Shown piece by piece: positions 16,194 through 37,545 of a stretch of 64,000 nucleotides of DNA. Every line of letters begins with the position of its first letter. Within the stretch, counting starts at the first letter, position 1. The stretch spans positions 132,382 to 196,381 of the forward strand of contig CAZEEI010000002.1 of assembly GCA_964511175.1 (NCBI GenBank), written 5' to 3'. Made by a program: the position numbers and the translations under genes. Under the pieces are notes generated by a model, which worked only from the letters and a program-made list of their open reading frames with translations, was not told the DNA's origin and did not search any database. The DNA comes from an uncultured Pseudomonadales bacterium (GTDB lineage: Bacteria > Patescibacteriota > Microgenomatia > UBA1400 > UBA1396).

Positions 16194-16218
16194 AACAAGT
16201 TACTACAAAAAGCTAGAT

Positions 16219-18048: not shown

Positions 18049-18069
18049 GCGACTGTATTATAGTGGCCT

Positions 18070-19984: not shown

Positions 19985-20792
19985 AATGATGAGCTACAAA
20001 AGCTAAAGCTTGTTTTATGGCGTCATTGTTGGCAGGCAAAATGCCGGCTTTCATTTCAATAGACACGGTATGTTGGTAATGATTTTTTTGTAATTCTTGT
20101 GCAATAAGCGTGTGCTGAGTTTGCGGATTGGAACCAATGAGGCCTAAGTAAGGTTCACTAATATGAAAATGTTGTAAATAAGGTTTAGCGATCAGAAAAG
20201 ATTGCGGGATATCTTCTTGATTTAAGGTCATAACAGCTGCATCAAGGTGTAACTGGACGTTAGGATGAGCGAGCGACTGGATGAAATCAACAGTTTCTTG
20301 AGTGTTTGTGAGGAAATTACACCCATATTGAGGAGCATTGGGTTCCAAACAAAACAAAATATTATGCGGTCGACACAGTTCCCCCACTTGCCAAAAAAAA
20401 TCTTTAGCTATCGCGTTAACTGCCTGATCAAAATGTGGGGGAATATGCCTATTTTGAGGAGAGCCGAAAACTAAACGCATCGTACCAAGTTCAGCCGCCA
20501 AAAGGATAATCTTATGCAAATATTTTAAAGTTTTCTTTTGTCCGCTGAGTTCAGTAAATATTTGCAGTTCTGGTTGGCCGTATAAGAGCGATTGCATTGC
20601 CACTGGCGTAAGGCCAAAATTTTGCAAATTTTGTTTATAGGTACGGGCAGCTGCGGCTGAAGCCATGGTGAGATCGGAAAATACTCTGGTTGGAGCGAGT
20701 TCAATATAAGCAATATTGCTTTTCTGCAAAAGGGCAAAAATAACCTTATCTTCGGTTTGATTCCAAGCAATATGAGAGATGGCACACTTCAT
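19968..20792 (-). CDS. sugar phosphate isomerase/epimerase (xylose-isomerase-like TIM barrel)
   Basis: Size and motif distribution (conserved E/H/D in ...LEPN..., ...HLD...) resemble AP-endonuclease-2 / TIM-barrel sugar isomerases. Confidence 0.6.
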   Translation of the reverse strand: MKCAISHIAWNQTEDKVIFALLQKSNIAYIELAPTRVFSDLTMASAAAARTYKQNLQNFGLTPVAMQSLLYGQPELQIFTELSGQKKTLKYLHKIILLAAELGTMRLVFGSPQNRHIPPHFDQAVNAIAKDFFWQVGELCRPHNILFCLEPNAPQYGCNFLTNTQETVDFIQSLAHPNVQLHLDAAVMTLNQEDIPQSFLIAKPYLQHFHISEPYLGLIGSNPQTQHTLIAQELQKNHYQHTVSIEMKAGILPANNDAIKQALAFVAHHYGSTK

Positions 20793-21616
20793 GATGGTTG
20801 AGTAGTAATAAACTTAATTAACTCAGGAAAAATGGTATTCTGATCATAAATATAATGCTGCCGGTTGCCCAAAATCGGGGCGTAGCGAGAATACACATTA
20901 TATTTGACCGGCCGTATTTCTGCATCCGCTTGTAAAACAAGTTGTTTGGCTGCCAAAGCAACCTTTTGCGCCGTAATTGGTTCGGTGGCTAAGTTTACTA
21001 ATTTGAGATTGAGAGGAATAATTTTATTAATATCACTCCACAAATGTTCGATGTTGTAGAACTGGAATTCACTATCCGGATGGGTTCGGTCTAAGAGCTG
21101 ATTGTGTATCAAATCAAAAATAAAATTCTTTTTTAATCCCGGCCCAAAAAGAGCTGGCAGACGAATGATTGTATGTTTGGGAAAATGGTCAGCCACAAAT
21201 TTTTCCAACAATAGTCGATGTTTCCCGTAAGGTTGCTGTTCACTTTCTTTAATTGGTGTTTTTTCATCTACCCGTTGGGGGTGAGGATAAACATCGACGG
21301 TGGAAATGAGAATGAATTCCCGGGCGGCCACTGTTCTTAAATTATCTATAAGCGCGTTAATGGTACGCCAATCTTCCGCTGGTTCTTGATTAGCTCGCCA
21401 TTTAGCGGCGGGAGCACCCGCGCAAACTAGACAATCATAAGCCTGATGACACATATCGCCGCTGTTTTTAGAATTGTATAAATCGTCAAAATGAGTTTGA
21501 CGTGCCAGGTTGCCGCCTACAAAACCGGTGTATCCAATGAGCGCTGTTTTCACAATATTTTTTTCTAGTCGTTGGCTAACTGTAGTGTATACTAAGAACC
21601 CAAATGAAGAAAACAC
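20789..21616 (-). CDS. NAD(P)-dependent epimerase/reductase (short SDR-like)
   Basis: Rossmann motif ALIGYTGFVGGNL near the N-terminus; ATGA overlap with the downstream gene. Confidence 0.6.
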   Translation of the reverse strand: MFSSFGFLVYTTVSQRLEKNIVKTALIGYTGFVGGNLARQTHFDDLYNSKNSGDMCHQAYDCLVCAGAPAAKWRANQEPAEDWRTINALIDNLRTVAAREFILISTVDVYPHPQRVDEKTPIKESEQQPYGKHRLLLEKFVADHFPKHTIIRLPALFGPGLKKNFIFDLIHNQLLDRTHPDSEFQFYNIEHLWSDINKIIPLNLKLVNLATEPITAQKVALAAKQLVLQADAEIRPVKYNVYSRYAPILGNRQHYIYDQNTIFPELIKFITTQPS

Positions 21617-22584
21617 TAATTCCTAGTAACACGCTTATTTCAGTGGTAGTTATTGCGGAAAATGTAGAGTCAATCATTTCTTCATATTTGCAGAAACTTG
21701 ATACTATTTTAAAAAATTATCCTGACGCAGAGATTGTTGTTGTGGACAACGCTTCATTTGACGGCACGGTAGTGCAGGTAAAAAAAATATTATCAAAAAT
21801 ATCACAGCTACGTCTTTTGGTTCTTTCTAAACCCTACAGTGCAGAAACAGCCTTGACTGCCGGATTAGATAATTGCATTGGTGATTACGTAATTGTTTGT
21901 AATCCAATTACCGATCGGCCCAATCTTGTTACAAAACTTTTGCCGTTTTTGCTTAAAGGGCAAGATGTTATTTTTTTGCGATTTACCCATTACGATTTCT
22001 TAGCGGGAGATAGAATTGTACGTTGGCTATCAGCAGTATTAGGACATGCTTATCATCGTAATATTTATTCTCATATTAATTATTCATTGGCTTTAAGCAG
22101 AAAAGCGGTTAATGCTTTGACTAAGGTACGTCGTAAGAAAAGATACTATAACTACATTAGTGAAGCCATTGGTTTTCAGGCTATTACCGTGACTTACGAA
22201 CCATTACACCGCCATCAACATTTATTAACTAAAGAAACGGTGTTTTCTTTAGTTATTCGCCTATTTGACGCTAGTATCAGCCACTCAGTTAAACCACTGC
22301 GCCTAGCTTCTTTAGTGGGTATAACGGCCAGTTTTTTGAATATTAGTTTTTTGTTATACGTTTTTGTCGTGAGCGTGGTCAAACAGAATATTGTGGAGGG
22401 GTGGGTTACTACCAGTGTTATGATGGGTACGATGTTTTTTATTCTTTTCCTCATTTTGACTATTATTTCCGAGTATTTGTTGCGTATTTTAGAGGAGAGC
22501 CGCCAGGAACCATTATATTTTGTAGCTGAAGAAATTGATAACTCCATTTTTTCGGTCAATCGACAGCATCTTAATGTAGTGTGA
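21604..22584 (+). CDS. glycosyltransferase family 2 with C-terminal TM pair (GtrB/DPM1-like)
   Basis: ISVVVIAENVE...VVVDNASFDGT, a GT-A signature, followed by two C-terminal TM helices. Confidence 0.8.
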   Translation: MKKTLIPSNTLISVVVIAENVESIISSYLQKLDTILKNYPDAEIVVVDNASFDGTVVQVKKILSKISQLRLLVLSKPYSAETALTAGLDNCIGDYVIVCNPITDRPNLVTKLLPFLLKGQDVIFLRFTHYDFLAGDRIVRWLSAVLGHAYHRNIYSHINYSLALSRKAVNALTKVRRKKRYYNYISEAIGFQAITVTYEPLHRHQHLLTKETVFSLVIRLFDASISHSVKPLRLASLVGITASFLNISFLLYVFVVSVVKQNIVEGWVTTSVMMGTMFFILFLILTIISEYLLRILEESRQEPLYFVAEEIDNSIFSVNRQHLNVV

Positions 22585-23918
22585 GTATTGACGAAACATA
22601 TTTTTACGCATACTTTATAGTGATGAACAAAAACAAAAATTTGTCAGATTCCGCCCGTCAGAAAACCATTGATCCTGACTCTAAAAATTTTAAGGTTAGA
22701 CAATGCCGGGTTTGTGGTGGTAAGCACCTCTACCCATTTTTGTCATTAGGTGCTATGCCAATTCCCAACGGTTTTTTGGCCGAAGATGAGGTAGGGCAGA
22801 AAGAGCCACGTTATCCACTCGGAGTTTTAGTATGTGAGGACTGTTGGTTAGTGCAACTAACCCATGTGGTTCCAGCGGAGATTATGTTTAAAAATTATCT
22901 CTACATTCCTTCGACTTCGGCTACCATGCTGTCACATTTTCAATCGTTCGCCAAGGATGTTGTAAAGCAATTTAGTTTGGATAAAGGGGATCTAGTTATC
23001 GATATCGGTAGCAATGATGGAACACTATTGGGCTATTTTAAAGATCAAGAAATGAGAGTTCTAGGGATTGATCCGGCTTCTAATTTGGCTCAGGTGGCTA
23101 GATTAAAAGGTATAGACACTATCGATTCATTTTTTTCGGCTGCAGTGGCCAAGGAAGTACGGCCAAAATATGGTAAGGCCAAAATCATTACTGCTACTAA
23201 CGTTGTTGCCCACATTGATGACATTCACAGTCTTTGTGATGGGGTGGCCGAGTTATTAGATGATGATGGTGTGTTTATTATGGAATTTCCCTATTTATTA
23301 GATCTCTTAGACAAAAATGAGTTTGATACGATCTACCACGAGCATCTTTCTTATTTCTCGATTACACCGCTAGTTCATCTATTTAAGATGCATGATATGC
23401 AGATTATTGATGTTAAAAAGATGTCGGTTCATGGCGGATCAATCCGAGTCTATGTCACTAAAAAACAATCTACTAGACAAGTACAGTCTTCAGTACAGGA
23501 GTTTTTACAAAATGAGAAATTGAAAAAAATTGACAAACGGGTGGCCTATGATGATTTTGCCCGCCGAGTTAAGGTAATTAAGAGAGATTTAGTAGCTTTT
23601 CTCAAAAAATTACGGGGACAAGGAAAAAGGGTGGTGGGATATGGGGCTGCCGCTAAAGGTAACGTCCTATTGAATTATTGCGATATCACTACTAACCTGC
23701 TTGATTTTGTGGTTGATTCTATTTCTTATAAGCAGGGCCGCTATACTCCCGGGACACATATTCCGATTTATCCGGAAAGCCGTATCGAAAAAGAAAAACC
23801 CGATTATGTGTTGTTATTGGCCTGGAATTTTGCTGACGAAATTTTAAAAAAGCAAGTTTCTTATCGGGAAAAAGGTGGGCAATTTATTATCACCATTCCT
23901 TATTTGCGCATTGAATAA
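22581..23918 (+). CDS. NDP-sugar C-methyltransferase-like protein (N-terminal Zn-ribbon, class I SAM MTase, C-terminal C-MT domain)
   Basis: CRVCGG...CEDC zinc ribbon, DIGSNDGTLL motif I, and a C-terminal domain like TylCIII / NovU-type enzymes. The GTG start overlaps the previous stop (GTGA); alternative ATG at 22623. Confidence 0.7.
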   Translation: MSIDETYFYAYFIVMNKNKNLSDSARQKTIDPDSKNFKVRQCRVCGGKHLYPFLSLGAMPIPNGFLAEDEVGQKEPRYPLGVLVCEDCWLVQLTHVVPAEIMFKNYLYIPSTSATMLSHFQSFAKDVVKQFSLDKGDLVIDIGSNDGTLLGYFKDQEMRVLGIDPASNLAQVARLKGIDTIDSFFSAAVAKEVRPKYGKAKIITATNVVAHIDDIHSLCDGVAELLDDDGVFIMEFPYLLDLLDKNEFDTIYHEHLSYFSITPLVHLFKMHDMQIIDVKKMSVHGGSIRVYVTKKQSTRQVQSSVQEFLQNEKLKKIDKRVAYDDFARRVKVIKRDLVAFLKKLRGQGKRVVGYGAAAKGNVLLNYCDITTNLLDFVVDSISYKQGRYTPGTHIPIYPESRIEKEKPDYVLLLAWNFADEILKKQVSYREKGGQFIITIPYLRIE

Positions 23919-23923
23919 GGGTC

Positions 23924-24820
23924 TTACGGCTGGTCGCAAATTTCGTTAATAATTTCTTGCCAAGTTCGGAATTGGGTATTAAATTGGCTTTGGGTCCATT
24001 GTGTGTCCAATCCGCCATACTGCGGATAACGCCTGTCATTTCCGGTTTGAGCTAAATATTTGGTCAGCGATCCGGATAGTAATGGTTTATTAACTTGACG
24101 AGCTTTGCGTAGTAAATATTCGGCGATTGCCAGTGGTGTTCCAGTATTGCGGCTAGAAACATGGAAAATACCTGTTTTAGGTTGTTTTAGCAGCCGGAGT
24201 AGGAGGGCGGTAAGTTCGGGAATAAAAGTAAGAGTCAGATATTGGTCGGCAAAAAAGGCGGGAAGACGTTGATTGTCATACCCATTAAGGATTTTTTGCA
24301 AATAATCGGCCTTAACAGAGAAGGATTGCCTTACCGGATTAGAAATACGAACAATACTGTAATGTTCAATTAATTCTTGCACCAAGTGTTCGCTTTGAAT
24401 TTTGCTCCAACCATACCAAGTGACTAAAGCAGGATCAGTTTCTACGGGAGCCGACTCCACGTATGGTCCTGGCGAATCAGCGCGGCCAGAAAAAACAGCA
24501 TCGGTGGAAATATGGATAAAGGGTCCGTTAAATAGTTGGTGAACTTGCGCTAATATTTTAGTGCCCAACACATTTATCCGCCAACACTCTCCTTGCTGGT
24601 TGTGTCTTTCTTGTTCACTTTGGCTAACGTTGGTAAAAGCGGCAAAATGAATTGTTGCTTCGGGTTGAAAATCTTGATAAAGCTCTTGTACTGCGCTTAA
24701 TTGAGTAATATCCATTTCAGCATGGGTTGGTGCCAAAATTTCTAGCCCGGATATATTTTGGGCTGTTTCTTGGAAGTGCGATCCCACTAGTCCGCGTCCA
24801 CCGGTAATTAGGATTCTCAT
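23924..24820 (-). CDS. dTDP-4-dehydrorhamnose reductase-like (RmlD family) SDR
   Basis: MRILITGGRGLVGSHF Rossmann motif and the YGWSK catalytic YxxxK. Confidence 0.7.
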   Translation of the reverse strand: MRILITGGRGLVGSHFQETAQNISGLEILAPTHAEMDITQLSAVQELYQDFQPEATIHFAAFTNVSQSEQERHNQQGECWRINVLGTKILAQVHQLFNGPFIHISTDAVFSGRADSPGPYVESAPVETDPALVTWYGWSKIQSEHLVQELIEHYSIVRISNPVRQSFSVKADYLQKILNGYDNQRLPAFFADQYLTLTFIPELTALLLRLLKQPKTGIFHVSSRNTGTPLAIAEYLLRKARQVNKPLLSGSLTKYLAQTGNDRRYPQYGGLDTQWTQSQFNTQFRTWQEIINEICDQP

Positions 24821-27800
24821 AAGCGAATACTTAGATCTTCTTTTTCCAAAGTTAGGTTTTCATTGTAGTAAGGATCATGTTTGAGTGCCGTACCCCACCG
24901 TTTTTGCAGTTTAGTAACCTCTTTCTTCAGAAGAGAGTCATCACGTTGGCGAGTTTCCGGCCGACCAACCGAAACTGATTCATGGTGATAGAGTACGGCA
25001 AAGGGGGTATAGACATGACGCAATCCTTGCTGACTGAGACGTAAACACAAATCGACATCATTAAAAGCAACCCGGAAGAGGGGATCCATGCCATTAACGG
25101 CGAAATACTTCTTCTTTTCGATCATTAAGCAGGCAGCGGTAACCGCCGACCAATTCCGAATCACATCTTTATTGTTAAAAATGGGCAATTTTCCAGGTTC
25201 ACTGGCGGGAAAAAGTTTTTGTGAATGACCGGCCATACCAGCGATGCCTAAAATAATTCCGCCATGTTGCAATAAACCATTGGGATAAAGCAACTTAGCT
25301 CCTACAGCGCCGATTTCCGGCAGTTGGGCATACTCTAAAAGCGCTTCCAACCAGCGTGGCTCGACTACTTCGGTATCGTTATTGAGGAAAAGAAGAAAAT
25401 CACCTTGGCTTTTTTGGGCGGCATAATTATTAATATCCGAATAATTAAACGGTTTTTGATAATTGAGCACGGTTATGTTTTTTCTTTTTTGAATTCGATC
25501 AAAATAAGCTAATGCTTCCAGTTCGGTACTTTGGTTGTTTACCACGATTATTTCGTAGTTTGGATAATGCGTTTTTTGAGTAATGCTATCGATACATCTT
25601 TTCAAATAATCAGCGCCATCTTTGGTAGGGATAATAATGGAAACTAGAGGTTGTTTGATAATCGTTGGTTGAACGTAAAATAAATCAGGACGAATACCTG
25701 GCAGGAGCTTACCCCTCAGATGACGTCGCTTCATGGCATCCAGCAGCGCCCTCTCGGTACTACTTTGCGCGTAACTCTTGGCGGTGTATACCGTTGCGGT
25801 TGAACCAACAATCTTGCGCCAGTGGTAGAGAACCATGGGAATATGCTGAATATTTTTAGTTTTTTCCGTAAACCGCAGCACAAAATCATAGTCCTGAGAA
25901 CCTTCATAACCAACCCGGAAGCCGCCGATCTTTTTAGCCAAAGCAGTGCGATATACGCCTAAATGGCAGGTGTACATGCTGGAAAGAAAATATTCCGGTG
26001 ACCAATCCGGTTTAAAGAAGACATCGCAGCGCCGGCCCTGCTCATCCAGCTTATCTTCATCGCTGTAAATCATATCAGCTTCAGGGTATTTATTTAGCCA
26101 GACAACCACTGCCGCTAAGGCATGGGGGGCAAGTTCGTCATCATGATCAAGTAAAGCGATGTATTCACCAGTAGCTTGTTGGAGAGCCAGCTGCGTGGCA
26201 GCTGATATCCCTTGATTTTTTTGGTTAAAAGTTACTTGAATATTTTGCTGGTGAAGAGAATGGAGGTAATCAAGAGTACTGGCTTGGGTTGAACCATCAT
26301 CCACAATACAAATTTCCCAGTTATCATAAAGTTGGTTTTTTACCGACTCAATGGATTTATCCAGCCAGCGAATATCAGAATTATAGGTTGGCAATAAAAT
26401 GCTAATTTTGGGACGATACTCTAATTTTTTTAACTGTGATGTTACTAAGGATAGATGTTGTGGTTCATTTTTTTGAATCCACTGCTGGTATTGATAGTTG
26501 TACCAGGCAACTTGATCACCAACGATTCTATTTTCCTGAATTTTCCGGTAAAGACCGGCGGGGCCTTGCTGAATTAGGATCTTAATTACTTTGCGCCCCT
26601 TGTTTACCGCGTTCAGTTTGGTCAGCGCTGACAAAATTGAAAAAGAAACATCTTCGGGGGCAGTTGCCAATGTAAAACCTTGGCCAAATAAAGAAAGTTG
26701 GGGGTTATAGAAAGGATCATTATCAATTAATTTGCCCCAGGTTTCGCGCATATAAAGGATTTCATGCAAATCAATCTTACGGCCAGTTTCCTCGACCTTG
26801 CCAACGCTGATTGATTCATGATGAGTTAAAACTACGTGCGGATCATAGACAATTTGGAAGCCGTGTTGACGTAAACGTAAACAAAAATCGATATCGCTAA
26901 ATAAGACTTTCAAGTCCTCTTCTTGAAAGCCACCAACCTTCTGGTAAAGCGATTTTTTAGTTAAAAAACAAGCTCCCGTTACCGCCGACCAGTTTCTGGT
27001 TAAATCTTTAAAGAAAAAACGGGGATTTTCTTTAATTGCGCTATCAGGCATACCTTTAAAGGGGTGACCAGCCACACCAAGATCGTTGGGATTATTTTTC
27101 ATTCCCAAGAGTACACCGGCATGTTGCAAAGTACCGTTAGGGTAAAGGAGCTTGGGAGCCACGCCGCCAATATCGGCACGCTGCATGTATCCTACTAAAG
27201 GACTGAGCCAATCTTTGGTTATTGGCTCGATATCATTATTTAAGAGCAAAATATATTCACCCCGAGCGTGTTCTACGGCAAAGTTAAAAATTCGGGAGAT
27301 ATTAAAGGGTTGAGTGAAATCTAGGATGGTTATTTGCGGATATTTAGCCAACTCAGCAAAATAAGCCAAAGTTTCCGGTTGTTCACTATTATTGTTAACA
27401 ATGAGAATCTCAAAGTTTTGGTATGGTTGGTTTAGCACGCCATCGATACTTTTACGCAGTAAATCAACGTGATCTTTAGTTGGCACAATAACCGAAACAA
27501 GTCTTGATGTTTTAGTTTGATAACGGAGTGTTAAAGAATTGGCAGATGGCTCTTCTGTAACGTTGACCGTCCAACCACGCCGCTGGAGAGAGATTTCTAA
27601 TGAAGATTTATTGGTGCGATTGGCTTTTTTAATTCGCAATGGCAAAAATTCGCTAAACAGTATTACCGGAAGATGAGCAAAACGGGTGGGATATTCGGAT
27701 AATTTTAAAAGGTATTCGTACAAAAAGGCTTGATTTTTAGAAAAGAAGCCATGCTTGCGGAAAATCTTGGTATTCAAAAAAATAAAATTACCTAAATAGT

Positions 27801-28602
27801 TATTGGCTAAAAAAAGATCTAGAGAAAAATCGGGTTTAAACAGCGGATCATGATGCTGAAAATGGGAATTGATTGTATCTTCATCAAAATATAACACATC
27901 GGTCTGCTCGTGTTCACCTAAATATCTTTGTACTTCTTGTAAGGTTATTGGGAACAAGGCCAATGGGAAAAGTATAAGGCCGACAAATGATCGTTTCTTA
28001 TTTTTTAGTAACCGATTAATAATTTCCGGTATGTCCAGTGAGCTTTTAGCTGAATGCAAAGAAATTTGTAAATTTCTTTTGGTATATTGACGCAGCCTGG
28101 GCCATATCTTAGCTTTAGAGTGAACCACTAAACATAATTCCCAGTAAGGATAGCTTTGTTGTTCTAAAGTAGACAGTGATTGTCTCACTTGTGTCCAATC
28201 AGCATTTTGGTCAATAACACCGATCAACAAAAGGGGGGATGCTAAAGGAGAGATGGCTGACGGCAAAATCCTCTGGGGTGAATTATCTTCCAACCAACGC
28301 TGGTACACATCAGTAGTGAGGAAATGTTTTTGTCCGAAGATTGCTTTTTTAATTAAAATCTTTAACTGAGCCCAAATTTGCCAAACACGAAAAGTTTTAG
28401 CACGTTTAATGCCATCTAAAATATAAGAAAGGTTATTGCTATGCTGACGCCAGATCATTAGTTCGTGCTGTAGGGCATCATTGTCTTTTTTAAGTAATCG
28501 ATTATCGTGTTTCAGTTCACGTATAACAGGGGATAATGCATTGCGTTTAGTGGGCTTGAAAGATTTTGAGAGCATATGACAAATAATTAATAAGGAACTC
28601 AC
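24817..28602 (-). CDS. multidomain glycosyltransferase (three tandem GT2 domains, N-terminal coiled coil), 1261 aa
   Basis: Three GT-A openings (VSVIVPTKDH..., ISILLPTYNSD..., VSIIIPTKDGAD...), each followed by a DXD motif. ATGA overlap with the rmlD-like gene. Confidence 0.85.
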   Translation of the reverse strand: MSSLLIICHMLSKSFKPTKRNALSPVIRELKHDNRLLKKDNDALQHELMIWRQHSNNLSYILDGIKRAKTFRVWQIWAQLKILIKKAIFGQKHFLTTDVYQRWLEDNSPQRILPSAISPLASPLLLIGVIDQNADWTQVRQSLSTLEQQSYPYWELCLVVHSKAKIWPRLRQYTKRNLQISLHSAKSSLDIPEIINRLLKNKKRSFVGLILFPLALFPITLQEVQRYLGEHEQTDVLYFDEDTINSHFQHHDPLFKPDFSLDLFLANNYLGNFIFLNTKIFRKHGFFSKNQAFLYEYLLKLSEYPTRFAHLPVILFSEFLPLRIKKANRTNKSSLEISLQRRGWTVNVTEEPSANSLTLRYQTKTSRLVSVIVPTKDHVDLLRKSIDGVLNQPYQNFEILIVNNNSEQPETLAYFAELAKYPQITILDFTQPFNISRIFNFAVEHARGEYILLLNNDIEPITKDWLSPLVGYMQRADIGGVAPKLLYPNGTLQHAGVLLGMKNNPNDLGVAGHPFKGMPDSAIKENPRFFFKDLTRNWSAVTGACFLTKKSLYQKVGGFQEEDLKVLFSDIDFCLRLRQHGFQIVYDPHVVLTHHESISVGKVEETGRKIDLHEILYMRETWGKLIDNDPFYNPQLSLFGQGFTLATAPEDVSFSILSALTKLNAVNKGRKVIKILIQQGPAGLYRKIQENRIVGDQVAWYNYQYQQWIQKNEPQHLSLVTSQLKKLEYRPKISILLPTYNSDIRWLDKSIESVKNQLYDNWEICIVDDGSTQASTLDYLHSLHQQNIQVTFNQKNQGISAATQLALQQATGEYIALLDHDDELAPHALAAVVVWLNKYPEADMIYSDEDKLDEQGRRCDVFFKPDWSPEYFLSSMYTCHLGVYRTALAKKIGGFRVGYEGSQDYDFVLRFTEKTKNIQHIPMVLYHWRKIVGSTATVYTAKSYAQSSTERALLDAMKRRHLRGKLLPGIRPDLFYVQPTIIKQPLVSIIIPTKDGADYLKRCIDSITQKTHYPNYEIIVVNNQSTELEALAYFDRIQKRKNITVLNYQKPFNYSDINNYAAQKSQGDFLLFLNNDTEVVEPRWLEALLEYAQLPEIGAVGAKLLYPNGLLQHGGIILGIAGMAGHSQKLFPASEPGKLPIFNNKDVIRNWSAVTAACLMIEKKKYFAVNGMDPLFRVAFNDVDLCLRLSQQGLRHVYTPFAVLYHHESVSVGRPETRQRDDSLLKKEVTKLQKRWGTALKHDPYYNENLTLEKEDLSIRL

Positions 28603-28671
28603 CTTCCATATTACATCATTATTTACTCATACCAAGCAGCATGTATAAATATTTGACAAGTAATTGAATAA

Positions 28672-29544
28672 TTGGATGATTATCGATATCCTATATCAGA
28701 TATGTTTGGATTTCACAAAGGCATGGGCCTGCAAGATTATGCTCAATTTCTTTATGAGGTAATTAAGCGGAACACTGAAACTCCCAAACAGTTAGCTATA
28801 GTACAACAGAAATTAGTTGACCTTGACGATAAAATTAATCACAATGCAATACTTTTTAACCAGCTTATTCAAATTGTTCAAAAAATTGAGACTATCTCAA
28901 CAGAATTAACTCAAAAAAGTTGTGTTGAAGATTTTTCTTTTTATCAACATATCTTTTCCTCTAAACTGATTATTTTTGAGAAAAAAATTTCACCCAAGAT
29001 TTTTAACAATATAAATAAGACTATTTTGTGGCTTGGTAATAAATCGATGATCCCAACAGGATTAAAACAACGATCGCGACTTTCCCTAATCAATTTAACT
29101 GAATTACCATCCGCACTTTTTGATCTTAATCAACGGCATATTTCTTATGATATAGTTGTCGTTTCTAATATTCTTCTTACCAATCTTTTATTAACGCATT
29201 CATCCTTATTTATTGTCATGGGAAGGATTACTAAATTAACTTGGATATTAGCCCTACCCGAAGAAAATGAGCTTGATTACCTGGCTAGTTTTTTAACCAA
29301 GCAGATAGATGATACCGAAAGTACGAGTCAAAATATTGCCAAATTACACGCAGCCGGATTTTTTGAGATAGAAGCTATATTTAATGATGGCTCTCGTAAT
29401 ATTACTAGATATGCTCGCGAAAAAGGGTTTTATAATTACCTCTCTTTTCCTACTGAAAAGGTAAATTTATCTGAAAAACGTACGGCTCAGTTTTTAATAG
29501 CCAGAAAAATTCCTAAGTATACAGATTTTGATGAAAAACTATGA
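28672..29544 (+). CDS. hypothetical protein (290 aa)
   Basis: ORF in a very AT-rich block with no recognised motif. Translationally coupled to the next gene (ATGA overlap). Confidence 0.5.
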   Translation: MDDYRYPISDMFGFHKGMGLQDYAQFLYEVIKRNTETPKQLAIVQQKLVDLDDKINHNAILFNQLIQIVQKIETISTELTQKSCVEDFSFYQHIFSSKLIIFEKKISPKIFNNINKTILWLGNKSMIPTGLKQRSRLSLINLTELPSALFDLNQRHISYDIVVVSNILLTNLLLTHSSLFIVMGRITKLTWILALPEENELDYLASFLTKQIDDTESTSQNIAKLHAAGFFEIEAIFNDGSRNITRYAREKGFYNYLSFPTEKVNLSEKRTAQFLIARKIPKYTDFDEKL

Positions 29545-30500
29545 GTGAAAGATTGCCACAACATTGTTTTTTATTATATGGTTATGGTTCCGAATATGTG
29601 CTTCATCCATTGTTTGAGTATATTGTTGACCATCCAGAGCTTGGCGAAGTTATAGAGATTGATGCTCTTCAAGAAAAAGAGTACCTTAGCAAAATAGAAT
29701 TGTTAAAAGGAAAAAAATCGATTATTTTTATTACCTCTGCTCATTTTCTTGAAGATCAACATCTTTTTAATTTTTTAACCAGTTCTCAAGATAGTAAGAT
29801 TATTTCACCTTTAGAAATAATGTCATTCTTACGATCCCAAAAAAATATTTTTGTTGCCCATGATCTGACTATGCCCATATTAACAGAGGAAGAAAATTAT
29901 TTGATGCTTTTTGATTATATTGTCATACCGTACCCACATCAAAAATCAGTAGCTGGTAATCCAGTTTTTATATCAGATGTTGGTTGGATTAAATATGCAG
30001 CCAATTTAAAGTCAACAACTAAGGAAAAAGGAACAATTTTCTTTTTATCTGATTTTCAAATGTATAGAAATTATGGGTTTGAAAGCATGTATAAAAGATT
30101 TAAATTTCTTTTTGATCATGGGATACCAATCAAACTTCCGGTATATATTGATACAAGAATTTTTGAACAAAAATTGCGTGACAGGGGTGTTAAGGTTATT
30201 CCGGCGATTAAAGACTCTGTAAAAGAAATAATTAAACACAAACACATTATTGTTAACGGCATGTCTTCCGTAATTACCGAGGCGGCACTTTTAGGTAAAC
30301 AAGTAACGGTGATTCAGGAGGAATTTTATCCACCCTATTTATATCAAGAGTTATTTGATCGCTTTCCCAATTTACATAAAGTAAGAGAAAGTCACGAGAT
30401 AAAGTTATCTGCTACTAACCCAACTGGAACCAATACGGTGTTGGTACCTTTCCAGCCAAAGAAATTTATCAGTAAAATCCTTGATTTAGAAAAAGAATAA
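29541..30500 (+). CDS. putative CDP-alcohol/polyol-phosphate transferase (TagB/TagF-like GT-B)
   Basis: The C-terminal block IIVNGMSSVITEAALLGKQVTVI resembles the TagF DYSSV...KP motif. The gene context fits (cytidylyltransferase, HAD, ABC exporter). Confidence 0.45.
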   Translation: MSERLPQHCFLLYGYGSEYVLHPLFEYIVDHPELGEVIEIDALQEKEYLSKIELLKGKKSIIFITSAHFLEDQHLFNFLTSSQDSKIISPLEIMSFLRSQKNIFVAHDLTMPILTEEENYLMLFDYIVIPYPHQKSVAGNPVFISDVGWIKYAANLKSTTKEKGTIFFLSDFQMYRNYGFESMYKRFKFLFDHGIPIKLPVYIDTRIFEQKLRDRGVKVIPAIKDSVKEIIKHKHIIVNGMSSVITEAALLGKQVTVIQEEFYPPYLYQELFDRFPNLHKVRESHEIKLSATNPTGTNTVLVPFQPKKFISKILDLEKE

Positions 30501-30501
30501 G

Positions 30502-31092
30502 ATGAAATATCTTTTTGATCTCGATGGTACGGTAACTAATCAAGAAATTTTACCCTTGATAGCCCGTGATCTTGGTTTGGAAAATGAAATGGCGGAGTTG
30601 ACGAGAAAAACTATGCAAGGTGAAATACCTTTTGAACATAGTTTTCGTATACGTGTAGAAATGTTGGCGCGTGTTCCTATAAATAGAGTACAAGAAATTG
30701 TATCGAGGGTATCTATTAGTAAGCCAATTCTAAATTTTTTGACCAACCATGTTGAGACAAGCGCCATTGTTACCGGCAATCTTGACATTTGGATTCAGCC
30801 ACTAAGGGAAAAAATTCCAGTTTGTTTTTATACTTCCAAAGCCAAATATGAGGGTAATACTTTGCTGGGTATCAAATCAATTCTCAACAAAGGTCTCATT
30901 GGCAAGCAGTATGATTTAGAAGAAGTGGTTGTTGCTGTGGGAGACGGCAACAATGATTTGGAAATGTTGGAGAATGCCGCTATTGCGATAGCCTATGGAG
31001 GTGTACATACGCCAGCGGAAGCACTTTTATCGATAGCAGATTATGCTATTTATCAGGATGAAAAATTATGTCAATTTCTAACACAGTTGTAA
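30502..31092 (+). CDS. HAD-superfamily phosphatase (HAD-IB / SerB-like)
   Basis: Motif I DLDGTVT, a Thr/Ser motif II, and motif IV GDGNNDLEM. Confidence 0.75.
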   Translation: MKYLFDLDGTVTNQEILPLIARDLGLENEMAELTRKTMQGEIPFEHSFRIRVEMLARVPINRVQEIVSRVSISKPILNFLTNHVETSAIVTGNLDIWIQPLREKIPVCFYTSKAKYEGNTLLGIKSILNKGLIGKQYDLEEVVVAVGDGNNDLEMLENAAIAIAYGGVHTPAEALLSIADYAIYQDEKLCQFLTQL

Positions 31093-31730
31093 TAAATACG
31101 GCCGGCGTGGGAAGTCGTTTAGGATTTGGCTATCCCAAATCCCTGTTGGAGATAGGTGGAAAACCCCTAATTGTTCACCATTTAAATAATTTAATGGATT
31201 GTGATGATGTTAGGATAGTGGTTGGTTTTCAAGCTCAAAAGATAATCGACATTGTTTTACCAATCAGGCCAGACGCTATTTTTGTTTTTAATCACCAATA
31301 TCAGGAAACAAATACCCTACATAGTTTAGCGTTGGGTTCTAAATTTGCCTCCCAATATGTTATTTCATTGGATGGGGACTTATTAATTAGGCCCAAGGAT
31401 ATTAGAAAAGTTATTCAATATCCCGGTGAGGTGGTTTGTTATACACCAAGCCACACCCAAGAGCCTGTTTTTGCTAAAATTGAAAAAAAGAAAAATCAGG
31501 ATATGATAACTGCCTTTACCCGTCGCAAGGTTTTACCCAATGAGTGGACCGGCGTGGTTAAAATTCATTCTAAGAAGTTGGGACAGAATTACGGTAAGGA
31601 GCATGTTTATCAAGCTTTGAAAAAATATTTACCAATAAACGCGTTCCCCATTTCTTGTGTTGAAATTGATACACCGCAAGATTATGAGAATGCGTTACGT
31701 TGGGCAGCAGAAAAATTGGGGGTAGTATGA
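31068..31730 (+). CDS. sugar/alcohol-phosphate nucleotidyl(cytidylyl)transferase (LicC/IspD-like)
   Basis: N-terminal NTP-transferase signature VINTAGVGSRLG...PKSLLEIGGKPLI. Confidence 0.75.
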   Translation: MSISNTVVINTAGVGSRLGFGYPKSLLEIGGKPLIVHHLNNLMDCDDVRIVVGFQAQKIIDIVLPIRPDAIFVFNHQYQETNTLHSLALGSKFASQYVISLDGDLLIRPKDIRKVIQYPGEVVCYTPSHTQEPVFAKIEKKKNQDMITAFTRRKVLPNEWTGVVKIHSKKLGQNYGKEHVYQALKKYLPINAFPISCVEIDTPQDYENALRWAAEKLGVV

Positions 31731-32368
31731 CAACATTCTCACGTGACGATATAGATAAATTTTGGCGAAAACAAACAACAGTCAAAGATCCGCGTGTAGC
31801 GACTCATTTTAAAAAAGACGATGCCCATCTTTTTGATATCACTTTGGTTAGAAACTATATCAAACCAAATTCGCGCGTTCTAGATTTGGGTTGTGGCACT
31901 TGTGTTATTGCTAATGAAATTTCGGCAGAAGTTGCAAAAATAGTTGCGGTGGATAAATATAATGAATTTTTGTCCTATTGTCGAACCAGTAATAAAATAG
32001 TACCAATAGAAGCGGATTTGCTTAGTTACGATCCGGGGAAAAACAATTTTGATCTAATTTTATTTTTTGGCATAATGAATTATTTTAGTGATCAAGATGT
32101 AAAGGGTATGTATGCACGGGCTTCTCAAGCTTTAAAAAAGGATGGTGTTTTAATAGTGAAGCATGCTAGCGGTATTAATGGTGACGTAGAAGTTGATAAG
32201 TATTCTAAACAGATAGGGGATGTTTACCGCGCCATATACAGAGGAATTGACCACGACAAATCGCTTTTGCAACAGTTCTTTTCTCAAATTACTATTGAGG
32301 ATATTTACCCACCAAGATTGAATCGATGGGATAACACTCATTACTACGCGTATATTTGCAAAAAATAA
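31727..32368 (+). CDS. class I SAM-dependent methyltransferase
   Basis: Motif I VLDLGCGTCVIA. ATGA overlap with the upstream gene. Confidence 0.75.
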   Translation: MTTFSRDDIDKFWRKQTTVKDPRVATHFKKDDAHLFDITLVRNYIKPNSRVLDLGCGTCVIANEISAEVAKIVAVDKYNEFLSYCRTSNKIVPIEADLLSYDPGKNNFDLILFFGIMNYFSDQDVKGMYARASQALKKDGVLIVKHASGINGDVEVDKYSKQIGDVYRAIYRGIDHDKSLLQQFFSQITIEDIYPPRLNRWDNTHYYAYICKK

Positions 32369-32369
32369 C

Positions 32370-33170
32370 TTAACTATTTTGTCGGTAAACGTTAATTATT
32401 TCTTTAGGCTCACCAAGAGATATTATCTTGCCAGCTTTAATATATACTCCGCGATCACAGAATTCCTCAACAATATTTAAAGCATGCGTTACCAGCACGA
32501 TACTGACGCCTTTTTTTTGAAATGAACGGATTCGCCGTAAACACTTATCTTGGAAACTAATATCTCCCACCGCCAAAATTTCGTCTACGAGGAGAATTTC
32601 CGGATTAGTATGTACGGCAACGGCAAAGGCGAGGCGCAAATACATGCCTGACGAATAATGTTTAATCGGCTGGTCAATAAACTCGTGCAGTTCAGCAAAA
32701 TCAACGATCGAATCAAACTGAGTCTCGATTTCCCGACGCTTTAATCCTAAGATTACGCCATTCAAAAAGACATTCTCCCTACCCGTCAGTTCGGGATGAA
32801 AACCGGCGCCTAGTTCGATCAGGGGGGCAATGCGACCATTTACCGTAATTTTGCCTTCGGTGGGTCGACTGACGCCCGCAATCAACTTAAGCAGGGTGGA
32901 TTTACCGCTGCCGTTGGGTCCAATAACACCAATGGTTTCGCCGCGCTTGACCTCTAAATTCACGTCGCGTAGAGCCCAAAAGGTACTGGCGGTGCTTTTT
33001 CCGGCTATTAGAGCTGGTAAAAACTCCTTAAACGTTTTTTGTTCCTGCTTGTAAAACAATTTACCCACGCCTTGAAGACTGATGGCCGGGGTTGAATTGG
33101 AAGCAGGAGAAGAAAGCTTAAACGACATCCGCAAATACCCCTTCCATTTTTTTGAATAACCAATCGGCAA
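32370..33170 (-). CDS. polysaccharide/teichoic-acid export ABC transporter ATP-binding protein (Wzt/TagH/KpsT type)
   Basis: Walker A GPNGSGKST, LSGGM signature, Walker B LLVDE. Confidence 0.85.
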   Translation of the reverse strand: MPIGYSKKWKGYLRMSFKLSSPASNSTPAISLQGVGKLFYKQEQKTFKEFLPALIAGKSTASTFWALRDVNLEVKRGETIGVIGPNGSGKSTLLKLIAGVSRPTEGKITVNGRIAPLIELGAGFHPELTGRENVFLNGVILGLKRREIETQFDSIVDFAELHEFIDQPIKHYSSGMYLRLAFAVAVHTNPEILLVDEILAVGDISFQDKCLRRIRSFQKKGVSIVLVTHALNIVEEFCDRGVYIKAGKIISLGEPKEIINVYRQNS

Positions 33171-33891
33171 CCAGCCAAAGCAGTAGGGATAAAACCGAAG
33201 CTATGGCTAAACTAGCCAGATTGGGGTTACCGCCAGCCAGTAAAACTTGACGATAAGCATTAATTAAAACGGCCATCGGATTTAGTTGAAAAATCCAGCG
33301 GTATTGGTCGGGGAATAGTTCAACCGGATAAATAACCGGCGTAAGATACATCCAAACAATTAGGCCTAAGTTAAGCAAATACTGAATATCGCGGTAAAAA
33401 AGATTAAAGGCTGCTATTAATAAGCTTAGGCCATACATAAAAATACACTGAATTAGAAAAATCGGCACAAACCATAAAATTGACCAACCAACCGGCAGGC
33501 GGAAAAAGATCATAAACGCCACAAAAACTGTGGAAGCCAGGAAGAAATCCACAATCTTAGCCAAGATAGTGCTAATGACAAACGTTTCGCGCGGAAAATA
33601 GATTTTAGTAATTAAGCCAGCGTTGCCAACCAACACGTTGGCTGAACTCGTTAAGGCGCCGGTGAGCAGTGTCCAGGGCAACATACCGGCGTAAAGGAAA
33701 ATCGGGTAGGGCACGCCCAAATCGGGAATGCGTAAAATCTTGGAGAAGACAAAGGCCATGACCAGCATTTGGAAAAAAGGGTTCAAGATAACCCAGGCGT
33801 AACCAAGTAAAGATTGCTTGTAGCGCTGTTTAATTTCCCGCTTAGTCAACTCGGTTAGTAACTCACGATATTGAAAGAAAGCGGTGAGCAT
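33118..33891 (-). CDS. ABC-2 type polysaccharide export permease (Wzm/TagG type)
   Basis: Six TM helices and an N-terminal ...REIKQRYKQSLLGYAWVILNP... ABC-2 motif. Confidence 0.8.
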   Translation of the reverse strand: MLTAFFQYRELLTELTKREIKQRYKQSLLGYAWVILNPFFQMLVMAFVFSKILRIPDLGVPYPIFLYAGMLPWTLLTGALTSSANVLVGNAGLITKIYFPRETFVISTILAKIVDFFLASTVFVAFMIFFRLPVGWSILWFVPIFLIQCIFMYGLSLLIAAFNLFYRDIQYLLNLGLIVWMYLTPVIYPVELFPDQYRWIFQLNPMAVLINAYRQVLLAGGNPNLASLAIASVLSLLLWLVADWLFKKMEGVFADVV

Positions 33892-35198: not shown

Positions 35199-35237
35199 AT
35201 TGGGGGGAGTCTACTATGATATGGCCAGTTGCTCAAG

Positions 35238-35311
35238 TGGCTGATGCAGGACTCGAACCTGCGACCTCACGAATGTGAATCGTGCGCTCTAACCAACTGA
35301 GCTAATCAGCC
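35238..35311 (-). tRNA. tRNA-Val (anticodon CAC)
   Basis: Cloverleaf on the minus strand: acceptor GGCTGAT/ATCAGCC, anticodon stem CACGA/TCGTG, loop TTCACAT, T-loop TTCGAGT. No encoded CCA. Confidence 0.9.
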
Positions 35312-35364: not shown

Positions 35365-37545
35365 ATGTCTACCCCGAGATCACCTGATGTGCCAACTCCT
35401 GAATCCGAGGTAGAGGAAAAATCACGGAAAGAAAATTTGGTTGACACACCCTTAAAGTTGTTGCGTGTACTTTATCGGTTATTAGAATCAGAGCATCCCT
35501 CCCAAGACATAAGCGGCGAGGCTTTAGAAGGAACACGTCATGTGGGGAGAGATAAAGTTTCGGTTTGGACTTTGGCGTTTTCTAATAAAGCCAATGATTT
35601 TTTTTCTAAACATAATGCTATAGAAGATGTACTATTAGTAAACTTGCAGTGGTTTAATCGTATTTTCCGTCCGCAAAGAAAAAATATTTTTGGCGAGGCC
35701 GATCCTGGTTTTGCTTCCCGCGTATTCAGGTCGCACATGAATTCCGGTTTTTTCACACACTCGGAGATTGCCACCTATTTACAGCGAGCGGGAGAAGAAG
35801 AAAAGCGCGGTTTATTGGATTCGGCCTATTTTATTGATCCCGATGAACTTTCTCTTGGAAAACCACCTAATGCTGACCCAGAATTGATTAGCAATAGAGG
35901 CTGTTTTAATTTTCAGGAGCACCTACCATCAATACCTGACTTATCTTTACCAAATTTAGTAGAACGAGTAATTACCGAAAATTTGTTAAAACAATGTTTA
36001 ATTATTTTGGAAAAAACACGTGGTATTAGGCAATCCGATGGAACAATCAAGTGGGATGGGGTGGGGCCACTACCACTGCCCATAGGTGAAGTCAAAATTG
36101 CCGTACGTATAGGCAATGTGGAACATCCGTTAACAATTAACATTGATGGAAAACAATTACGATCCGTATTGGATCATATTTTGCAAAATGATGACCTAAC
36201 AATATATCAGGATGATCTTTTGTTTGTACGCAAACATATATTAGCTCAAGTATCGCAATTATTAATATCGGGTAAAACAAAAGGGTCACGGGTTATTACT
36301 CCCAACGAAGTAAAGCAGGCTTATAGCCGGGATGCCTACAAGGATATAGAACAAAAACCCGTTAATGCTTTTTCGATCAATATATTGCCAGAAAAAATTA
36401 TGGAAGGAGGGGCGACGGTTAGACCAGCCACTAGTTTAACCAATAGCTGGCAGAATTGGTCAACTACCGATTTATATATTAATCAAGGTGGGCAACTCAT
36501 CGCTCGTGGGCAAAATTTTGCGCATCCCATGATTGATGGGCGAGAAGCGGAGATATTTTTTACTAATGCCGACCCCGGATTGGCTCTTATTCAAAAACAT
36601 CTTAATGAATCAGATAAACAGGTCAATGCTGTGGCCAATCCAGCGGTAACAATTCGGGAAGTAACTAATTTTGCCGAATCGGAGACGCTCCGAAATTTGC
36701 AGGAAAATGTGCCGGATATATTTGCGGAAACAGTTATTCCCAGTGAAATAGTGACTGAATTACGCAGGAGACATAAAGAATTAATTAATCATTTATTAAG
36801 TAACCCCGCTCTCCTACGCGATAAAATAATGCCATTTGTGTGGCAGAGACAATATCTGCGTACGCTCCTACTAAAACCAGAAGAAAATAGAGAGAAAATA
36901 AGCTCTGAGATACGGCAAATCTTTTCCTTTAATACCTTTCTGAGCTTAACGCTGGCAAGCTTACTGAATCTTCAGGGGGAATTACTAGTCTTAAACGCTT
37001 ATGGGAGAGTAAACCCGGCTTTAATGGGCATTCCCAGAGTGTTGGAAGAATATTTAAGACGAGGGGGAGAACTCTCTGAACAAGAGCTTGGTGAGGTTGC
37101 CATTAGTATATTGATGAGCGCATCAATAGTACGAGAAGAAAAAAAGTTGGCTCAAGACAAAATGTATCCTGGCACAACCGCTTTCCGTCTCTCCACCGTG
37201 TCGGGTCCAAACGAGAAACTGCTCGATTTTCTATCGAGTATAGTGATTCCTTGGAAACAACAGGCGTTACAAGAAAATAAGGCACAAATATCTTTTCTTT
37301 CAGGGGTCAAGGATCTTATTTTCCAGGGCGCTTTAGCCAAGCGCTACCCGGCTACGGCTGCTGTCCACGAATATAAAGGGCCTAACGGAAGCAGTTTCCG
37401 CGTAAACGTTAGGTCGCGCCGAGAAGATCAAGTCCGCACACCTCTACCCTCACTTTCTGCGGAAAAAATCCAAGCCCGCTGCGAAGCCCTTTTTGCAATT
37501 TTAGAAAATTACTTTAATACTTCCAGCAATTCCGCCACTTCTTGA
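35365..37545 (+). CDS. large hypothetical protein (726 aa), no signal peptide, acidic N-terminus
   Basis: Long uninterrupted ORF with no motifs I recognise; adjacent to tRNA-Val. Confidence 0.6.
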   Translation: MSTPRSPDVPTPESEVEEKSRKENLVDTPLKLLRVLYRLLESEHPSQDISGEALEGTRHVGRDKVSVWTLAFSNKANDFFSKHNAIEDVLLVNLQWFNRIFRPQRKNIFGEADPGFASRVFRSHMNSGFFTHSEIATYLQRAGEEEKRGLLDSAYFIDPDELSLGKPPNADPELISNRGCFNFQEHLPSIPDLSLPNLVERVITENLLKQCLIILEKTRGIRQSDGTIKWDGVGPLPLPIGEVKIAVRIGNVEHPLTINIDGKQLRSVLDHILQNDDLTIYQDDLLFVRKHILAQVSQLLISGKTKGSRVITPNEVKQAYSRDAYKDIEQKPVNAFSINILPEKIMEGGATVRPATSLTNSWQNWSTTDLYINQGGQLIARGQNFAHPMIDGREAEIFFTNADPGLALIQKHLNESDKQVNAVANPAVTIREVTNFAESETLRNLQENVPDIFAETVIPSEIVTELRRRHKELINHLLSNPALLRDKIMPFVWQRQYLRTLLLKPEENREKISSEIRQIFSFNTFLSLTLASLLNLQGELLVLNAYGRVNPALMGIPRVLEEYLRRGGELSEQELGEVAISILMSASIVREEKKLAQDKMYPGTTAFRLSTVSGPNEKLLDFLSSIVIPWKQQALQENKAQISFLSGVKDLIFQGALAKRYPATAAVHEYKGPNGSSFRVNVRSRREDQVRTPLPSLSAEKIQARCEALFAILENYFNTSSNSATS

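Follow-up and report, generated by a model that had tools for sequence, protein, structure and literature searches.

The cassette of small, tightly packed genes analysed here raises the question of which activated headgroup it makes, and to what that headgroup is attached. The closest known system is the recently described FtaABCD pathway of C. difficile (cd0241-cd0244), which makes CDP-threonine and attaches phospho-N-methylthreonine to the flagellin sugar, and the authors of that study asked whether CDP-threonine serves other biomolecules as well. The reading we favour is that a five-gene module probably attaches an N-methylated hydroxy-amino acid to an ABC-exported polysaccharide through a phosphodiester, the most likely form being phospho-N-methyl-threonine. 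While the pathway itself is known, its proposed place in a polysaccharide locus and the use of an unnamed transferase family would be new. The relevant features of the window (the whole 64-kb stretch of DNA that was analysed) are as follows:

24817-28602, minus strand: protein of 1261 aa, three GT2 domains (three Glycos_transf_2 stretches, 7e-73)
28672-29544, plus strand: ORF0, the upstream partner of ORF1 and the coupled fifth gene
29541-30500, plus strand: ORF1, 319 aa, a minimal GT-B fold of an unnamed family
30502-31092, plus strand: HAD-IB protein (FtaA homologue), phosphoserine-phosphatase/ThrH-like
31068-31730, plus strand: nucleotidyltransferase (NTase, FtaB homologue), an NTP_transf_3 cytidylyltransferase
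31727-32368, plus strand: class I SAM methyltransferase; ATG 31727 is the likelier start and gives 213 aa, the reading frame being open over 31700-32368
32370-33170, minus strand: Wzt, with an ABC_tran match
33118-33891, minus strand: Wzm, with an ABC2_membrane match

The initial annotation had described four translationally coupled genes at 29541-32368, within an AT-rich block. These genes are real and lie at those positions, and the GC content of the cassette is 0.32-0.37 compared with 0.46-0.50 in the flanks, but the coupled ORF0 had been overlooked. The ORF0/ORF1 junction is an ATGA overlap, a single nucleotide separates the ORF1 stop from the HAD start codon (ATG), the HAD and NTase genes overlap by 25 nt (28 nt at the corresponding junction of the C. 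difficile reference locus, L021), and the NTase stop forms a second ATGA overlap with ATG 31727. This ATG, likewise chosen as the start where an identical contig was annotated independently, is more likely to be the methyltransferase start than TTG 31700. The motifs earlier reported for the HAD protein and the NTase (DLDGTVT, GDGNNDLE and GVGSRLG...PK..LEIGGKP) were each found in the translations. The five-gene order was found again in unrelated contigs, at 35-54% identity, so the arrangement goes beyond chance. A scan for promoters and terminators gave sites no more numerous than in shuffled controls.

The Type A reference locus, L021, was located by comparing FliC variants with the Type A glycopeptides described in the literature. 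It lies directly 3' of fliC and a CD0240-like glycosyltransferase gene, in the order HAD, NTase, methyltransferase and Glyphos_transf, which is the domain order described for cd0241-cd0244. Over their full lengths, the HAD protein of the window shares 39% identity with the C. difficile-type FtaA (E 8e-50) and the NTase 46% with FtaB (E 5e-66, 190 bits). The alignment of the NTase family contained 29 invariant columns across 21 members, FtaB among them. CDP-2-glycerol synthesis (Gtp1-3 of S. pneumoniae) had also been considered as a model for the HAD and NTase pair, and was dropped after the orthology to FtaA and FtaB had been measured.

The surroundings of the cassette are those of a Wzm/Wzt polysaccharide locus rather than of flagellar genes. 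Wzm and Wzt specify an ABC-2 polysaccharide exporter and are convergent with the cassette, and on the other side a 70-bp divergent intergenic region separates ORF0 from the 1261-aa GT2 protein, which is likely to be a glycan polymerase that supplies the acceptor. A search of the 64-kb window with a flagellin HMM was negative, and neither a homologue of LicD or FtaD nor a PF04464 match was found there. In a survey of 43 dereplicated FtaB neighbourhoods, gathered with the FtaB alignment, ORF1 was present in eight, none of which carried FtaD or LicD within 9 kb, compared with 19 of the 35 clusters without ORF1 (hypergeometric estimate for this exclusion, about 0.005). LicD is the partner of FtaA and FtaB in many other loci, and in the loci examined ORF1 was seen solely with FtaA/FtaB. 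Since ORF1 never occurred with FtaD or LicD, it probably replaces both as the phosphotransferase, and the absence of these two means that the ORF1 loci hold no other candidate transferase. Wzm/Wzt genes adjoin the module in four of the eight ORF1 loci (the window, L006/7, L024 and L029).

ORF1 is proposed to be a CDP-(N-methyl)threonine:glycan phosphotransferase, a functional substitute for FtaD or LicD. Its family comprises 182 clusters at 50% identity and has no Pfam model. The AF2 model was confident (pLDDT 92.5) and showed a two-domain, GT-B-like fold resembling TagF or TarL. Conserved residues E18, S66, H68, H107 and D108 are placed in loops following the N-domain strands, where the catalytic residues of GT-B enzymes and TagF lie, which supports a transferase role; H107 is invariant in the family, with H444 of TagF as a candidate counterpart only. 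In hhalign comparisons the C-domain matched an FtaD-like profile (probability 91%, E 9e-7, 135 columns), while GT4 and Epimerase_2 control profiles reached 6-7%, the controls having been built from fewer sequences (4-6, compared with 9 for the FtaD profile). The N-domain had no detectable sequence similarity to TagF, and ORF1 as a single sequence gave no significant match to FtaD. The initial annotation had likened the C-terminal block (GMSSVITEAALLGKQV) to an SSV...KP motif of TagB/TagF; the SSV is present, but a literal KP is absent from ORF1 and belongs only to the family consensus. Membership of the TagB/TagF Pfam family did not hold, as PF04464 did not match ORF1, and a search of 99 members of its family at a threshold of E 0.01 gave no match either. 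An ordinary GT4 is likewise not indicated, there being no Glycos_transf_1 match in ORF1 or its family.

It is conceivable, though unlikely, that the homologues of FtaA and FtaB and the methyltransferase make the CDP-amino acid while ORF1 is a sugar glycosyltransferase or an NDP-sugar epimerase or hydrolase, the headgroup being attached by some other protein (GT2 or membrane, for example). The weak Epimerase_2 or Glyco_tran_28_C matches in a few family members would suit such a role, as would the missing PF04464 match, but ORF1 shows translational coupling with the genes of the pathway, keeps company with FtaA/FtaB to the exclusion of FtaD and LicD in the loci examined, and was placed by hhalign nearer to the FtaD-like profile than to the epimerase and GT4 profiles.

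The nature of the headgroup depends on the HAD protein and the NTase. Assignment of the former to HAD-IB, as initially annotated, was upheld by TIGR01488 (HAD-SF-IB, 66.5 bits, above the cut-off of 45), and the score to the SerB equivalog TIGR00338 was below its cut-off (90.3, cut-off 144.15). The best PDB match was the M. jannaschii PSP, which is also the template reported for CD0241. The protein had been taken for a phosphatase, but its orthology to FtaA, together with that of the NTase to FtaB, favours a phosphotransferase; it probably supplies the NTase with its substrate, as a phosphoserine:threonine phosphotransferase, and its ThrH-like character and similarity to FtaA fit a phospho-amino-acid substrate. 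In C. difficile, ftaA mutants are without CDP-N-methylthreonine, and the phosphotransfer activity of FtaA is itself a prediction. The NTase matched NTP_transf_3 (47.3 bits, cut-off 27), in agreement with its earlier description as a small cytidylyltransferase, and did not profile as a sugar-1-phosphate thymidylyl- or uridylyltransferase (PF00483, 16.4 bits, under the cut-off of 21.2). We propose that it acts as a CTP:phosphothreonine cytidylyltransferase, the substrate identities being transferred by homology at 39-46% identity.

Phosphocholine (as N-methylated phosphoethanolamine) or the phosphate of glycerol, ribitol or another polyol, the headgroups first suggested for this cassette, with the HAD protein acting as a phosphatase or kinase surrogate, now appear quite unlikely. 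The best match of the NTase to a solved structure was indeed LicC (1jyk, E 6.7e-6), followed by AEP and inositol-phosphate cytidylyltransferases, its relatives are automatically annotated as phosphocholine cytidylyltransferase or choline kinase, and some adjoin LicD and a TagD-like gene. However, the LicC match reached 29 bits against the 190 bits to FtaB, LicD is missing from the window, and the HAD protein resembles ThrH and FtaA. A sugar-nucleotide pathway is highly improbable: a sugar-phosphate phosphatase, a sugar-1-phosphate nucleotidylyltransferase of the heptose or Kdo style and, for example, a GT99-like beta-Kdo capping transferase would be in keeping with the chain capping usual for ABC-dependent O-antigens, with a CTP_transf_3 (KdsB family) match over most of the NTase (1.1e-6) and with a match of the ORF1 profile to the WbbB GT99 structure (5fa0, E 0.086), but both matches are far under the family cut-offs, no gene for a sugar-phosphate synthase, isomerase or kinase is part of the cassette, and the orthology to FtaA/FtaB is much stronger.

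The last gene was correctly recognized at the outset as a class I SAM methyltransferase (PF13649, Methyltransf_25, 50.9 bits, cut-off 27, E 2.5e-13). Its relation to FtaC is distant (23% identity, E 1e-10), with common blocks at the N-terminus (FW.K) and C-terminus (Y..IYR). The same subtype occurs directly 3' of FtaB in 13 of the 43 clusters, and in seven of the eight with ORF1; in Paenibacillus loci it stands alongside an FtaC-type gene. N-methylation of CDP-threonine by FtaC has been demonstrated in vitro, and the window enzyme is proposed to act on CDP-threonine as an N-methyltransferase too, but it belongs to another subtype than FtaC, so that the number and position of the methyl groups are uncertain.

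Under the amino-acid reading favoured here, the HAD protein would move phosphate from phosphoserine to threonine via an aspartyl-phosphate intermediate, and the NTase would join CTP and phosphothreonine to give CDP-threonine, a step suggested by the identity to FtaB and by the genetics and metabolite data from C. difficile. The small methyltransferase would then N-methylate CDP-threonine, and ORF1, probably assisted by ORF0, would take the phospho-amino-acid from its CDP carrier and place it on a sugar hydroxyl of the glycan that the adjacent GT2 enzymes make, with release of CMP. The argument for this transfer step is drawn from the fold, the remote homology to TagF and FtaD, and the exclusivity of the gene neighbourhoods. 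The product would be exported by Wzm/Wzt. The general logic of the initial annotation, a CDP-activated headgroup, SAM-dependent methylation and transfer to a glycan by a GT-B, TagF-like enzyme, is retained in this scheme.

ORF0 is a conserved partner of ORF1. It is 290 aa long from TTG 28672, or 280 aa from ATG 28702, and consists of a helical N-terminal region and a Rossmann-like C-terminal domain. A homologue precedes ORF1 in L001, L006, L023, L025-27 and L058, while the upstream ORFs of L024, L029 and L087 were under the HMM threshold and were aligned with ORF0 by position only. The alignment contains the motifs NDN..R..LH..GF.EV and Y.A.KLP, and the ORF0 profile gave no significant match to Pfam or PDB entries, arginine methyltransferases appearing at E about 0.7. 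A bolder proposal, unlikely as a whole, is that ORF1 as a minimal GT-B and ORF0 as a coiled-coil, methyltransferase-like partner form a two-component CDP-amino-acid phosphotransferase, which would cap the non-reducing end of the glycan with phospho-N-methylthreonine, and so stop elongation and determine chain length as WbdD does. Were that so, CDP-amino-acid chemistry would reach from flagellin to the cell-envelope polysaccharides of uncultured lineages.

With ftaABCD the module shares the two orthologues and their overlapping junction, a small class I methyltransferase after FtaB, and a GT-B-type transferase within the operon, but its neighbours are Wzm/Wzt and GT2 genes rather than flagellin or other flagellar genes, its transferase (319 aa, of the unnamed family) is encoded first rather than last and differs from the 491-aa Glyphos_transf protein FtaD, its methyltransferase is of the other subtype, and it has ORF0 as an additional conserved gene. 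In P. aeruginosa PAO1, pa1088-pa1091 act on b-type flagellin, where phospho-N,N-dimethylthreonine is carried on a deoxyhexose, so the pathway operates in a Gram-negative organism, on a sugar other than GlcNAc and with a different degree of methylation. By description, its methyltransferase, HAD protein, NTase and phosphotransferase are of the same kinds as those of the window, although the phosphotransferase is fused to a GT2 in PA1091 and the target is flagellin. TagF, TarL and TagB resemble ORF1 in their two Rossmann domains in a GT-B-like fold, in what may be a homologous CDP-binding C-domain, similar around SS..E..GK(P), in an invariant His in an N-domain loop and in having a neighbouring cytidylyltransferase to supply the CDP-activated donor. 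ORF1 is far smaller, however, has no membrane-targeting or extra domains, and has a CDP-amino acid as its predicted donor instead of a CDP-polyol (CDP-glycerol or CDP-ribitol). LicC/LicD decoration follows the same idea, with activation of a zwitterionic headgroup by a small cytidylyltransferase before it is placed in a phosphodiester on a surface glycan, but the window has no LicD and its NTase is distant from LicC.

This locus and its relatives therefore provide concrete candidates for a non-flagellar use of CDP-threonine, in loci for ABC-exported polysaccharides, and so a partial answer to the question posed for CDP-threonine. An unnamed GT-B family appears to stand in for a TagF-like or LicD transferase, and a second methyltransferase subtype has been revealed. 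If confirmed, the module would represent a new zwitterionic phospho-amino-acid decoration of bacterial envelope glycans, with a bearing on surface charge, immune recognition and phage receptors, and would add a new phosphotransferase family to be annotated.

The FtaA/FtaB family was also found with no methyltransferase of any kind, beside LicD and TagD-like genes, which means that its members may not share a single substrate. In two related loci a gene for an Asp/Glu-family racemase lies 3' of the module, a hint that some members, at least, may use a D-amino acid or a different amino acid.

The five-gene cassette is, on sequence comparison, a putative counterpart of the Type A flagellin operon of C. 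difficile, cd0241-cd0244 (ftaABCD, the phospho-N-methylthreonine pathway), and is a previously undescribed variant of this very recently described system. Its genes are as follows.

28672-29544 (+), ORF0, part of the same unit as ORF1, with which it shares an ATGA overlap
29541-30500 (+), ORF1, a 319-aa protein of GT-B fold, with no match in Pfam, NCBIfam or PDB sequences
30502-31092 (+), HAD, an FtaA-like protein of the HAD-IB family (TIGR01488)
31068-31730 (+), NTase, an FtaB-like nucleotidyltransferase (NTP_transf_3)
31700-32368 (+), MTase, a class I SAM methyltransferase, with a likelier start at ATG 31727

The last four ORFs lie precisely where the initial annotation had placed them, on the same strand, with the motifs it quoted and in the AT-rich block it described (GC 0.32-0.37 in the region vs 0.46-0.50 in the flanks), but its count of four genes overlooked ORF0. 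One nucleotide separates the ORF1 stop from the HAD ATG, HAD runs 25 nt into NTase, and the NTase stop shares an ATGA with ATG 31727. The latter is most likely the true MTase start, in preference to TTG 31700 of the ORF list; it gives a protein of 213 aa and is also the start called independently on an identical contig (L102). Profile searches upheld the family assignments of HAD (TIGR01488, 66.5 bits, cut-off 45), NTase (NTP_transf_3, 47 bits) and MTase; the SerB equivalog score for HAD and the PF00483 score for NTase both fell under their cut-offs.

A C. difficile-type reference locus (L021), found by matching published Type A glycopeptides against FliC variants, has the gene order fliC, CD0240-like GT, HAD (205 aa), NTase (214 aa), MTase (246 aa) and Glyphos_transf (491 aa). 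HAD and NTase of the window aligned over their full length with FtaA (39% identity, E 8e-50) and FtaB (46% identity, E 5e-66), and MTase aligned with FtaC (23% identity, E 1e-10); LicC, by comparison, scored only 29 bits with NTase. The closest solved relative of HAD was the M. jannaschii phosphoserine phosphatase, which is also the reported template for C. difficile CD0241. According to a 2026 preprint (bioRxiv 10.64898/2026.02.12.704994), FtaC is a CDP-threonine N-methyltransferase, the TagF-like FtaD is the phosphotransferase, and FtaA is predicted, by analogy with ThrH, to be a phosphoserine:threonine phosphotransferase. Unlike ftaABCD, the window system is non-flagellar (no flagellin gene was found in the 64 kb), has, where ftaABCD has FtaD, a putative transferase of an unnamed GT-B family together with a conserved partner protein, and carries a distinct MTase subtype. 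Among the C. difficile fliC loci (L010, L012-L021), near-identical FliC proteins precede different glycan gene sets, namely Type B, a third arrangement (L020) and Type A (L021), so FliC sequence poorly predicts glycan type.

ORF1 is the proposed substitute for FtaD. A profile of its family gave no significant match to the single FtaD sequence. In profile-profile comparison, ORF1 matched an FtaD-like profile of 9 sequences with a probability of 91% (E 9e-7, 135 columns, C-domain), against 6% (E 0.006, 46 columns) for a GT4 control and 7% (E 0.005, 89 columns) for an Epimerase_2 control, a result that is supportive rather than conclusive because the control profiles were smaller (6 and 4 sequences, respectively). 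An exhaustive profile search placed ORF1 in a family of 182 clusters, mostly of 300-330 aa, a few members having C-terminal TPR repeats. Close relatives are few: apart from ORF1 there is a single protein, 35% identical, whose gene lies in a five-gene group of the same order (ORF0-like, ORF1, HAD, NTase, MTase). In a 99-sequence family alignment, H107 was the single invariant residue, and near-invariant positions included G14, E18, S66, H68, D108, G148, W149, K198, S242, E247 and G252. An ORF0-family gene lies directly upstream of ORF1 in most ORF1-containing clusters. ORF0 matched no database family; its N-terminal region is helical and its C-domain Rossmann-like, the motifs being NDN..R..LH..GF.EV and Y.A.KLP. 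Its relatives have a G-rich motif, of which the window protein has a degenerate form.

NTase belongs to a widespread family. Scanning metagenomes with the FtaB alignment gave 80 loci; with the earlier ones added, the FtaB loci numbered 89 and fell into 43 clusters when grouped at about 90% identity, nearly all with FtaA directly upstream of FtaB. ORF1-family genes occurred in 8 of the 43 clusters, and none of these eight had FtaD or LicD within 9 kb, compared with 19 of the 35 others (hypergeometric estimate about 0.005); the window-type methyltransferase accompanied ORF1 in seven of the eight.

In the mechanism proposed, the best-supported reading of the cassette, the FtaA-like HAD would convert phosphoserine and threonine to phosphothreonine, an activity that is a prediction even in the model organism C. 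difficile. The FtaB-like NTase would use CTP to form CDP-threonine, which the methyltransferase would then N-methylate, both steps being based on apparent orthology to experimentally supported enzymes. ORF1, probably with ORF0, would move phospho-N-methylthreonine onto the glycan with release of CMP, as suggested by the fold, by remote homology and by gene contents that exclude one another, and Wzm/Wzt would export the product. Serine, homoserine or a D-form are candidate alternatives to threonine, the degree of methylation may vary, and the predicted group could be a chain cap or be placed on each repeat. The initial annotation was right about the general mechanism, in which a CDP-activated small phospho-alcohol is transferred to a glycan; its specific guesses of phosphocholine or a polyol phosphate are probably wrong.

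The module was found in two contexts. The first comprises Wzm/Wzt loci: the window, L024, L029 and L006/7, a locus from two assemblies with the same five genes. In the second (L001 12744-15066; L023 9217-11519; L027 9207-10838), the module comes after large membrane proteins that are paralogous and about 750 aa long, and before a membrane protein combining PMT_2 and F5/8-type-C. In L001 and L023 an Asp/Glu-family racemase lies between the module and the latter, a hint that the amino acid may be a D-form or a different one. In a Paenibacillus flagellin island, HAD, NTase and MTase adjoin LicD and a GT2-TPR-Glyphos_transf fusion resembling PA1091; this island (L004/L005, after the flagellin gene of Paenibacillus marchantiae, and L042) has both methyltransferase subtypes, FtaC-type and window-type, as well as two NTases and an aminotransferase. 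Gut capsule loci combine LicD, HAD, NTase and a TagD-like gene. FtaA-FtaB pairs of L008/L009 and L078-L095, mostly from gut metagenomes, lack any methyltransferase and adjoin LicD and the TagD-like gene in Wzy-type capsule loci, and in some of them one ORF scores as FtaB and partial FtaA. The FtaA/FtaB family may have more than one substrate.

The cassette is embedded in a polysaccharide locus, with these neighbors.

Further upstream, RmlD-like and epimerase genes, an NDP-hexose C-methyltransferase gene, additional GT2 genes and a Wzx-like protein
24817-28602 (-), upstream and divergent, a 1261-aa protein in which a helical segment at the N-terminus accompanies three GT2 domains
Downstream and convergent, Wzt (short, 266 aa) and Wzm, an ABC-2 exporter

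The 1261-aa protein, separated from the cassette by a 70-bp intergenic region, may act as a polymerase and may interact with ORF0. The segment 18070-24820 encodes the C-methyltransferase (22581-23918), an RmlD-like reductase, an epimerase, a xylose-isomerase-like TIM barrel and an FAD oxidoreductase, a gene set suggesting that the glycan contains an unusual deoxy sugar, either branched-chain or of another kind. Three sizeable ORFs had no Pfam match (16219-18048, -; 15339-16193, -; 35365-37545, +), and one of them, a 609-aa polytopic membrane protein, is possibly GT-C or polymerase-like. The glycan locus, at about 16000-33000, is entirely of low GC (0.32-0.43 vs 0.46-0.50 in the flanks), and this block stops about 2 kb short of a tRNA-Val gene (35237-35311, -), an arrangement compatible with horizontal acquisition.
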